Shown here one piece after another: positions 33,001 to 36,000 of a DNA stretch of 64,000 bases. Position numbers: made by a program. The stretch comes from Escherichia coli (lineage in GTDB: Bacteria; Pseudomonadota; Gammaproteobacteria; Enterobacterales; Enterobacteriaceae): NCBI RefSeq assembly GCF_022846255.1, contig NZ_AP025682.1; one strand, written 5' to 3'. How positions within the stretch are numbered: the stretch's first letter is position 1; each line of letters opens with the position of its first letter.

Positions 33001-36000
33001 CTCCGGTGTTTCCACGGAATTAACCTGAACAGCATGTTGCCCGGCACTTTCCATCACTGCAAAAAGCCCGAGGCGGGTGTACTGACACTGACTCATCAAA
33101 AATATCTGTTTCATCCGTATTTTGTCAGCTCCTGAGGAGCCTGTTCATTCCGTTTTCTCGATACCATCCACTGACGTAGTTTCTGAAATTTTGTCTGTGG
33201 CCTGAGTGACTGCTTTGCTGCGGGGGCAACAGGTTCCAACTGAACATCCAGTTCTGCTCCTGAACTGGCCGGGATTTCCTGCGGATCCTGTATATCCAGG
33301 ATCCGAAGAGCGCGTCTTCGTCCCGTTGTCGGTTCGTTCTGTATGAAGCGCCTGCTGCGGATATGGTTTCGTCCCTCGTGCTCAATGTAATACAGAATAT
33401 CTTTTGCTGTTCTCTGGGTTATATGAAACTCCCGGCTGACCGCCTCAACTGTCAGTAACCTGCCGGTTCGCATCCCCCAGAAGGTCACGATGATATACAG
33501 TGGTCGAGCCTGCATGTCCTGAACACACTCAGGACAGAAAAAATGTCTCTTTATTCGTCTGCGTCTCTCAGGCATACCCGCCACCTGAATATCTCTCCGT
33601 CAGAAGTATGAATTAAGAAGCATTGACATCCCTCCCCCCAGTAATTACAACAAACATCTGTTGCCGCATGTGTCGGGTTATCAGTGCTGAGTAACGCGCA
33701 ATACAGGTGCACAAGAAGAGGATCTGTTGTTGTCAAAATGACCCATTTTGACAACAACAGATTAAAAAACTAGATTTTTGCTATTGTCTGGTTTTATTTT
33801 CTTAGCTGTGTGGCGTTTTTGGCTGTTCATACTATTAATGGAGTTTTGGAGAATTCAGAAAACTGACAGACATCAATGCCATATTGTTACAGAAGGGATT
33901 TGATACGGGAGTTTTATTGATTTAAATCAAACAATTTTTAATTAATTGTTGTTTGCATAACCTGTGTTTTTTAACATTTGTAACCTCAATACAGGCAGTT
34001 TACAGTTTGGGTCAAAAAGTTGCTTTTTCGCCCTTTTTGACGGCTTCCATAACCGTTCAAAGCGGGCCGAATTTGAAGCTGTATAAATCACCGTATGCCG
34101 GATATTCCGGTGTCCCAGGTAATCCTGAATCAGGCGTGTATCGATGCCGTTATCTGCCAACGCGTAACCACACCCATGTCTCAGCATATGTGGATGGACA
34201 GCAACAGCCAGCCCGGCATTTCTTCCTGCTTCAGCCAGCAAGTTATAAAAACGTTGACGGGTAAGCGGACGCCCTGATCTGGAAATAAATAGCCAGTCCC
34301 TCTCTTCTTCTGCTGCAGGCAATTTTATAGTTTCCCGGGCTTTGAGCCAGTTCCTGATACATTGTACTTCTTCAGTCAGTAAGGGATGCACGGTACTGAA
34401 GCCGTTTTTCAGGCGCCGAACGCACAGCTTTCGGGACTCGAGCTCAAGGTCAGCAAGACGTAACGAAAGCATTTCGCTGACCCTGAGTCCGTGGATAAAA
34501 GCAAGAAGAATCATGCAGGCATCACGTTCCGGGTGGTGCCCCTTCAGCACCGCCCGTAACAAAAGGCTGACTTCATGGTGAGTAAGAAATTTTCGGGAAG
34601 ACATTAATCGCTCCGGTCAGATGAAACAGAGCGCTCAAGAGTGACACGATGCCCCCATCAGGCTATGGCTAAACGTGCTAAAGTCAGGAAAGCAGAATAA
34701 AACTCCGATTGCTCTTAAGAACAGTCAACTGGCATGGACCCACAGGTATATCAAATGAATTTAATCCAGCAACTGGCGGGAATTATCGAAGGGAATCTGA
34801 ACAGTCCACTGTCAGTAAAAGTTCTTGCTGAACGTTCAGGCTATTCAGAACGCTGGTTGTACAAACTGTTTCAGGATGTAACCGGGATCAGTGTAGCGCA
34901 GTACATACGTCGCAGAAAACTAACACTTGCCGCTTTACTTTTGCGCCATACCAGTCGCCGGATAACAGACATATCACTAATGTATGAGTTCAGTTCGCCC
35001 CAGGCTTTTTCCCGTGCTTTCAGGCAACAGTTCAAGGTGTCACCAGTGCAGTATCGCAATGCGGATGCCTGGGATATGCAGTATGCCCAGCCCGTATTGT
35101 ACAGAACCACACCGTGCACAAAATTCAGAATGATTGAGATAGCTGAGGGCAATCATCCTTCTGTTCCAAACCTTAAAATGCCTGTGAATCTGGGAATAGA
35201 CTTTATCCATACCCAGAGCGGCGATCATTTTATTTATAACCGTAACCTTTTTGAGTCCATAATATCAATTTATGGTCCTGTTAATGAAATGTCTGACTTT
35301 ATGATTTCAGGCGAAATGATACCCTCCAGAGAAACGGATTCTGAACTAATTTATATTTTTAAAGAAATAAACAGTTTTTCCCTGCCAGAGACGCTTCTTC
35401 CTGATGGTTTATATGCCAGCCGGGAATTTACTGGGACATACAAAGAGATTTTTGATTTTCATATATATGATGCCATGGGTGCGCTGTGTATTAATAAATG
35501 TGTTATGAAAAGAGGACCTATATATACACTATTTCACAGAACAGATAATAAAAATATTATGGATATGCAATTCCTCATTCCTTGCGTAAAAATTTAACTT
35601 CGCCAGACCCGATTAAAACGACCAGGATTACTGGCTGTATACAGTACAGTATGATGAATGTTCCTGTGTCCCAGATAATCCTGAATCAGACGAGTATCCA
35701 GTCCCTGATTAGCAAGAGCATAACCACAGGCGTGACGCAACATGTGTGGATGCACCTTAATTCTCAGACCCGCACGTTGACTATATCGTGCGCAGAGTTT
35801 ATAAATCCATTGTCTGGAAATTTTTTTCCCATGGCTTGACAGAAAAAGATAATCATCCTGACTACCTTTAGCGTATCTTTTTCTGATCAGGAGCCAGCGT
35901 TGCAATAGTTCTATTGTTTCTGGCTGCAATGGATGTGAAGTTGATAATCCGTTTTTCAGCCGCCTAATAAAAACAATTTTTTCAGTCATATCAAAATCTC

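Follow-up and report, generated by a model that had tools for sequence, protein, structure and literature searches.

The invertible promoter switches of the Fim/Ipu kind are the closest described relatives of the element considered here. At fimS, the switch of Escherichia coli K-12 operated by FimB and FimE, the half-sites differ in composition between the two orientations of the element, and this difference makes FimE act preferentially in one direction (summarised in PMC6083910). In uropathogenic E. coli (UPEC) CFT073, a 260-bp invertible element, ipuS, has been shown experimentally, with 7-bp repeats of which the distal one lies inside the recombinase gene ipuA. In the OFF orientation full-length IpuA is encoded, whereas in the ON orientation IpuA is 11 aa shorter and the promoter points toward ipuR-upaE, the genes for a regulator of LuxR type and for an autotransporter (Battaglioli et al. 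2018, PMC6083910). A more distant parallel is cwpV of Clostridioides difficile, switched by RecV, where a stem-loop that forms across the junction of inverted repeat and invertible DNA in the OFF state only has been proposed to act as a terminator (Emerson et al. 2009, PMC2784873). The present work deals with a perfect palindrome at positions 33722-33762 of a 64,000-nt stretch of E. coli DNA (assembly GCF_022846255.1, contig NZ_AP025682.1), which is referred to at its full length as the window. This palindrome is very probably the left inverted repeat (IRL), that is, the promoter-proximal recombination site in the window orientation, of a Fim/Ipu-type invertible promoter switch that would control the tibDBCA operon.

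The palindrome consists of two 19-bp arms that are 100% complementary and separated by a 3-nt spacer, ATCTGTTGTTGTCAAAATG-ACC-CATTTTGACAACAACAGAT. No other perfect hairpin-type inverted repeat of the window is as long; the runners-up have 14-bp arms and resemble ordinary terminators, and by our own arithmetic a perfect 19-bp repeat of this type would be expected by chance about 1e-6 times per 64 kb. As RNA, the 41-mer folds with -24.8 kcal/mol (z about -8 against shuffled sequences). The site is located in a 357-bp gap between two genes of the minus strand, which is thus the coding strand of both neighbours, namely tibD (33111-33584) and a gene for a tyrosine-type DNA invertase of the FimB/FimE/IpuA family (33942-34604). 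The preliminary description of this DNA had recorded the repeat and placed it in a putative switch region, and both the repeat and the label hold. It had also offered two functions, an operator for a dimeric regulator or a recombination site, which fare differently in the comparisons below.

The evidence for a recombination site comes from DNA that is found in two orientations in nature. In a BLAST comparison of the window with enterotoxigenic E. coli (ETEC) H10407, positions 33000-33743 and 34010-34425 are colinear, whereas positions 33739-34014 are inverted. The breakpoints fall at two 7-bp repeats, both given on the plus strand. The left core, TGACCCA (33739-33745), occupies the centre of the palindrome, and the right core, TGGGTCA (34008-34014), which marks the right inverted repeat (IRR), lies inside the invertase coding sequence (CDS), 66-72 nt before the stop codon. 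Therefore, the outer arm ATCTGTTGTTGTCAAAATG (33722-33740, plus strand) is fixed DNA outside the element, and the inner arm CATTTTGACAACAACAGAT (33744-33762, plus strand) belongs to a 276-bp invertible segment (33739-34014, both cores counted), moving to the other end and flipping upon inversion; the centre of the palindrome is the inversion boundary. This segment is situated between the invertase gene and the operon, directly upstream of tibD-tibB-tibC-tibA. Its bounding repeats of the TGACCCA/TGGGTCA type are conserved in at least 16 homologues, and every homologue, ipuS among them, has an element of 275-276 bp.

A megablast search against complete E. coli genomes returned 8 records colinear over the full query, together with at least 12 ETEC-type genomes for which two pieces cover only 62% of the query and a second location is hit within the same record. 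Pairs of loci in opposite orientation, compared between isolates or assemblies and not inside one clonal culture, define the exchange to the base. Between a Citrobacter locus with the long invertase (L077) and one with the short form (L073), the element matches at 276/276 positions as the reverse complement and the flanks at 300/300 on each side. Between two E. coli loci (L002 and L072), the element matches at 273/276 positions as the reverse complement, with 300/300 and 296/300 in the flanks. A precise and conservative inversion at the 7-bp repeats has taken place repeatedly in nature. All alleles of ETEC type (P0123, P0125 and H10407) show the flipped orientation and carry the core TGACCGA/TCGGTCA (locus L001, 6338-6344 and 6607-6613; loci L068-L071). 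One core position differs, with the complementary change at both ends, as is expected of a crossover region whose two ends must match. In H10407, the inner arm additionally carries a further substitution and a 1-nt deletion. The natural ON and OFF variants, together with the homology to ipuS, bear out the recombination site proposed earlier and identify the centre of the palindrome as its crossover core.

The inversion also affects the end of the invertase. In the window orientation this protein has 220 aa (...QLFDPNCKLPVLRLQMLKNTGYANNN) and reaches 254.8 bits with NF007370, the NCBIfam model 'tyrosine-type DNA invertase' (cutoff 221), which is also the name that RefSeq gives to its homologues. 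Flipping the element in silico reduces it to 200 aa (...QLFDPF) with the loss of 20 C-terminal residues, the new stop codon being the TGA contained in the inner arm. Exact look-ups in a protein collection retrieved 199- and 200-aa forms of two alleles, one from E. coli (P0001/P0121) and one from Citrobacter (P0016/P0135), each of which is represented there by its long form too (219 and 224 aa), and the contigs of these two-state alleles confirm the inversion.

The resemblance to ipuS extends from the sequence of the site to the arrangement of the genes. Both switches have the identical core TGACCCA/TGGGTCA and the identical inner half-site TTTTGACAAC; in CFT073, ...ggtttaCAAAATGACCCATTTTGACAACatc... 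is found at the proximal repeat and ...ttacatttTGGGTCAaaatgttgc... at the distal one, 268 bp apart, and the distance between cores is 268-269 bp in the two systems, next to a published element figure of 260 bp for ipuS. In both, the distal repeat lies within the invertase gene and the flip shortens the enzyme so that a terminal F remains, a second recombinase gene is found close by, and a LuxR-type regulator and an autotransporter adhesin are encoded downstream. On the other hand, the interiors are largely unalignable and the invertase genes share only about 70% of their nucleotides across part of their length. The tib locus adds a CaiF/GrlA regulator (tibD), a heptosyltransferase (tibC), and an AraC-type regulator, its C-terminal truncation amounts to 20 aa instead of 11 aa, and its proximal palindrome is perfect over 19 bp, compared with 7 bp plus a partial extension in ipuS. 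Moreover, inversion has been established by experiment for ipuS and by sequence comparison for tib.

The recombinases of fimS belong to the same family, and the layout is shared as well, with the invertase gene or genes followed by an element of about 300 bp within short inverted repeats and then by the regulated operon. The half-site flanks are also similar (GTCAAAATGG... and ACAGTTTGG, in the K-12 sequence ...gaaacatTTGGGGCCAttttgactcat and ggacagttTGGCCCCAA), including TTTTGAC inside the proximal repeat and ACAGTT before the distal repeat. However, fimS has 9-bp repeats (TTGGGGCCA) and a 314-bp element, its repeat lies outside the recombinase CDS, and its proximal site contains no long perfect palindrome. 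Judged by sequence and layout, the tib switch is of the Fim/Ipu kind (fimS, hyxS, ipuS), and it is ipuS-like in its core and in its overlap with the invertase gene.

Conservation of the site was assessed in 16 distinct switches in OFF-like orientation, collected from E. coli chromosomes and a plasmid, Salmonella IncHI1B plasmids, Escherichia whittamii, Citrobacter spp., an Enterobacter hormaechei plasmid, metagenomes, and ipuS. Nine of these switches, otherwise about 65-98% identical, were aligned over their full length. Their interior is highly variable, yet CAAAATGACCCATTTTGACAAC and GTTTACA.TTTGGGTCAAAA.GT.GCTTTTT are invariant. In the alignment of the site from all 16 sequences, there is little or no variation in the central 12+3+12 bp. 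Perfect pairing, counted from the centre outward, extends over 19 bp in the window, E. whittamii, and the metagenome locus L059, 18 bp in Citrobacter Cu233, 17 bp in the E. coli plasmid pToe17-1, 10-15 bp in other lineages, and 7 bp in ipuS. The preliminary description had called for a check of the palindrome in homologous loci, and the answer is divided, since the inner 12 bp of each arm are kept and the outer 7 bp are lineage-specific. The inner 12 bp thus appear to be under a strong sequence-specific constraint that fits protein binding, and by analogy with the known switches they probably serve to bind the recombinase. The outer 7 bp appear to be a lineage-specific extension, for which selection for pairing is only suggestive.

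The invariant centre bears directly on whether the palindrome could instead be an operator, independent of recombination, for a dimeric factor encoded nearby, such as TibD (CaiF/GrlA), TibB (LuxR), or the AraC/Rob-type regulator. A perfect dyad symmetry upstream of tibD, in a module that encodes several regulators, is what such a site would look like. However, the centre of the dyad coincides with the crossover core and inversion carries half of it away, and the invariant central 27 bp are also present in switches at loci without a TibD- or AraC-type regulator, as in the CFT073 ipuS locus, which has no annotated CaiF/GrlA or AraC-type neighbour. This invariant part furthermore resembles the recombinase half-sites in the flanks of fimS. 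The operator function put forward earlier is therefore left unsupported and we regard it as highly improbable. The same description had pointed to a recurrence of the half-site 8-mer ATCTGTTG at 33655. The recurrence exists, although at position 33656, and is not significant, as the window contains 6 copies of the 8-mer where 2.2 are expected, and 6/100 shuffles reach 6. In homologues with changed arms, the copy at 33656 does not change along with them. A third half-site as a component of the recombination site was rejected since this copy is neither enriched nor covarying with the arms, and the lack of covariation counts against an operator as well.

In the proposed switch, IRL would comprise the 7-bp core TGACCCA and two mirror-image half-sites GTTGTCAAAA, one outside the element and one inside; the core-proximal 12 bp of the outer arm, GTTGTCAAAATG, represent the putative outer recombinase half-site. 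The adjacent tyrosine invertase, possibly along with the second recombinase, would pair IRL with TGGGTCA 269 bp away and flip 276 bp. The partner site IRR would combine the inverted core with two weaker and differing half-sites, GCAGTTTACAGTT inside and AAAAGCAACTTTT outside. Accordingly arranged, the OFF state would have two strong half-sites at IRL and two weak ones at IRR, and after the flip each site would have one strong and one weak half-site. At the same time, the flip would split the palindrome, turning the arms into direct repeats 269 bp apart, deprive the invertase of its 20 C-terminal residues, and turn the promoter or promoters of the element to tibD. By analogy with fimS and ipuS, we infer that the recombinase binds the arms, and the asymmetry of the half-sites likely biases the direction of switching, as for FimE at fimS.

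Since inversion takes the inner arm along, the palindrome is present only in the window orientation, which we infer to be OFF-equivalent. This assignment follows from the homology to ipuS, where the full-length invertase marks OFF, and it agrees both with two promoter-like sites that face away from tibD and with the opposite orientation in H10407, the strain where the tib locus was identified. H10407 reportedly expresses TibA. The first promoter-like site, TTGTTT-17-TAACAT (33949-33977, plus strand), is the candidate switch promoter. Its -10-like hexamer is conserved at its alignment column, and it lies where the C-terminal extension of the invertase is encoded, the stretch in which the transcription start of ipuS was mapped. 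The second, TTGACA-17-TAGATT (33748-33776, plus strand), matches 10/12 consensus positions and takes its predicted -35 from the inner arm, with a poorly conserved -10. Both predicted promoters face away from tibD in the window and toward tibD once the element is flipped. In the window orientation, the candidate at 33949-33977 would fire antisense into the invertase gene on the minus strand, and in such a model the OFF state might damp invertase expression through this antisense promoter.

Several points weigh against the palindrome being part of a working switch of this type. IRR resembles the arm only weakly, at about 7/13 positions in the inner half-site and fewer in the outer one, so that the half-site model rests mainly on the analogy with fimS and ipuS. 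The OFF orientation accounts for the majority of the retrieved loci and all ETEC-type alleles are ON, and given this distribution ongoing switching in the strain of the window is putative. Finally, the distal 7 bp of each arm are unconserved across lineages, with symmetry over as little as 7 bp (ipuS) and up to 19 bp (the window). Arms as short as 7 bp imply that the full 19-bp symmetry is unnecessary for recombination, and this length is unexplained by the switch model alone.

The proximal site is unusual in its length and perfection, and it may also act in transcription. In the OFF state, the hairpin could serve as an intrinsic terminator or insulator on the minus strand, keeping transcription of the invertase gene and the switch interior from continuing into tibDBCA. 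Such a role does not exclude recombination. As one half lies outside the element and the other inside, the flip would dismantle the hairpin and let ON transcripts pass, and termination would explain why the stem reaches beyond the recombinase half-sites. A canonical terminator had been dismissed at the outset for want of a flanking U-tract. This is correct for the plus strand, but on the minus strand the stem precedes CCTCTTCTTG, and the pyrimidine-rich tail CCTCTTCTT (33713-33721, minus strand) stands directly 3' of the hairpin on the transcribed strand. The dismissal was premature, as a simple scan flags this hairpin and its pyrimidine/T-rich tail as terminator-like. No other terminator-like site is present on the transcribed strand between the invertase gene and tibD. 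It has 19 pairs, of which 6 are G-C, with a 3-nt loop and a folding energy of -24.8 kcal/mol, and lies 180 nt downstream of the invertase stop codon. Three diverged homologues with shorter stems carry unrelated T-rich tails directly behind the stem, namely CTTTTTTTGC (L065, the E. hormaechei plasmid), CCTTTTTCTT (L084), and CTTTTCCGTT (L086), and all of them are flagged, whereas the ON loci L072 and L073 contain no terminator-like site from the invertase gene to tibD. Precedents are the OFF-specific intrinsic terminator proposed for cwpV and, behind fimE, a Rho-dependent terminator that varies with phase (PMC2784873), and a block of read-through was considered possible by the authors of the ipuS study (PMC6083910). 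The likeness to cwpV, an OFF-only stem-loop at the junction of repeat and element, applies only if the tib hairpin does terminate transcription. The recombinase lineage and the organism are unrelated and the cwpV promoter lies outside the element, and there the proposed terminator is the whole switching mechanism; in contrast, the tib element most likely has its own promoter and the hairpin would only add insulation.

Nevertheless, other features speak against termination. The U-tract CCUCUUCUUG is weak, with 5 U in 8 positions interrupted by C and no canonical U-run, and the scan criteria are lax, about 0.9 hits being expected per shuffled region. The Citrobacter P0016-type switch (L077) is not flagged, and the ipuS stem is imperfect and has no T-tail. 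In addition, the purine-rich outer flank is also found at fimS and may be an inherited half-site context. Taken together, we consider a terminator quite possible while leaning slightly against it.

The pattern of substitutions in the distal stem is relevant both to this added role and to a further explanation, in which the symmetry of arm positions 13-19 is functionless and arose as a by-product of hairpin-templated, quasipalindrome-correcting replication errors in some lineages. Double substitutions that preserve pairing, as expected of a functional stem, are seen in pToe17-1 (TT->AA with AA->TT) and in L059 and L005 (T->C with A->G), and position 13, listed among the compensated differences, is T/T, A/A, or G/G depending on the lineage. 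Two uncompensated mismatches occur in close relatives of the window (L002, L064, and L056), which fits a by-product. Formal analysis of the 19-pair stem found 4 pairs and 10 cells with double changes, with a covariation score of 0.093 against 0.055 +/- 0.010 in shuffles, 0/500 of which reach 0.093. However, a register slid by +3 scores 0.092, matching the real one, and covariation was rejected as proof of RNA structure for this reason. Quasipalindrome template-switch mutagenesis is an established mechanism, and mutations that perfect a palindrome in this way could imitate compensatory change. The variation in symmetry from 7 to 19 bp across lineages and the modest covariation, equalled by one slid register, are also in line with a functionless origin. 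Against it stand the perfect or near-perfect arms of 17-19 bp with three distal sequences in separate lineages (the window and E. whittamii; L059 and L005; pToe17-1). Moreover, where the long stem is absent, a T-rich tail replaces the distal arm, which looks like alternative solutions to one functional requirement. A by-product of replication errors seems rather unlikely to us.

If the terminator exists, the half-sites of the proposed switch could carry several overlapping codes, as a split terminator formed in OFF only and, in the inner arm, as a -35 element and the stop codon of the ON invertase, with ETEC fixed ON for a virulence adhesin. This is a tentative proposal that we would not favour at present. 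If true, a single inversion would remove the insulator, turn the promoter to tibDBCA, and shorten the recombinase, and the same event would also change the half-site composition of both sites, setting the switching bias.

Regarding the genetic surroundings, the first gene downstream of the switch is tibD, of the CaiF/GrlA family, followed on the minus strand by tibB of LuxR type (32497-33114), tibC for an autotransporter heptosyltransferase (30953-32173), and tibA for an autotransporter adhesin/invasin (27817-30960). On the other side of the invertase gene, the switch module has two conserved companions, an AraC/Rob-type regulator gene (34734-35597, plus strand) and a gene for a second Fim-family recombinase of 183 aa (35594-36145, minus strand), which with 210.7 bits remains slightly under the NF007370 cutoff. 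The locus corresponds to tib of ETEC H10407. Its recombinase module is intact, whereas the H10407 invertase is cut short by IS600. The full module (invertase, switch, and tibDBCA) is also found on conjugative plasmids, in five Salmonella records at 96% identity, exemplified by the S. enterica IncHI1B plasmid p08-4425.1 (L064), and on one diverged E. coli plasmid, pToe17-1 (L004). This location implies that the presumably phase-variable adhesin cassette is horizontally mobile. In other modules, from the E. hormaechei plasmid, Citrobacter freundii, and one metagenome contig, a YgiW/YdeI (BOF) gene is inserted between the switch and the tibD-like gene (L065 4374-4757, L083 2492-2875, L086 2500-2886), and there the palindrome has a short stem and a T-rich tail.

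Some further observations concern the element itself. In L067 (Logan ERR4368550), the entire invertible element is absent, with window positions 33300-33745 joined to 34013-34700 at the junction GTCAAAATGACCCA|AAAAGTTGC, and the invertase has 199 aa, ending ...QLFGSF. The endpoints, equivalent to window positions 33745 and 34013, fall exactly at the boundary of core and half-site in both repeats, which suggests an aberrant recombinase-mediated deletion rather than recombination from arm to arm. Deletion between direct repeats was rejected, given that the junction has TGACCCA followed by AAAAG, unlike an arm-arm recombination product. Inside the element, a perfect 14-bp palindrome, TTGATTTAAATCAA (33917-33930), lies within the block TTATTGATTTAAATCAA, the best-conserved interior sequence across the aligned diverged switches, with variants in pToe17-1 and ipuS (CATTGATCTAAATCAG); this palindrome may be a candidate binding site of an accessory protein or regulator. 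Another inverted repeat, GTCAAAAAG ... CTTTTTGAC (34011-34019 and 34033-34041), begins inside the right core and lies within the invertase CDS. In the flipped state it is lengthened by the arriving inner arm, and in H10407 its arms measure 19 nt and are 79% complementary.

The 17-mer CAAAATGACCCATTTTG gave 49 matches in species-representative genomes, of which the real homologues are Citrobacter sp. Cu233 and E. whittamii, and the other 47 were discarded as chance matches in unrelated phyla. The 21-mer GTCAAAATGACCCATTTTGAC gave 10 matches in metagenomes, including 4 real homologues. Those in the JGI contigs L055, L057, L061, L062, and L063 and in L058 were set aside because of their unrelated context without extended arms, and the five JGI contigs share a recurrent AT-rich context, gggaatgcGTCAAAATGACCCATTTTGACtcctaat. 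Matches to Rfam were sub-threshold hairpin look-alikes, mainly to microRNA precursor models, and were likewise rejected.

No account of an invertible switch at tib was found in the searchable literature. The tib switch appears to be new, whereas the kind of system (fimS, hyxS, ipuS) and the database name 'tyrosine-type DNA invertase' were already known. With the palindrome, nature provides a clean test of the influence that half-site symmetry, and possibly a hairpin tied to one orientation, has on the bias and leakiness of a switch. If tib works like ipuS and fimS, TibA would be phase-variable in many Escherichia, Citrobacter, Enterobacter, and plasmid-borne loci, including those of Salmonella, and the prototype ETEC strain H10407, with its IS600-cut invertase and altered core repeat, would be a fixed-ON derivative. 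This would bear on how far TibA expression data from H10407 can be generalised, on considerations of TibA as a vaccine antigen, and on the network of cross-acting Fim-family recombinases.

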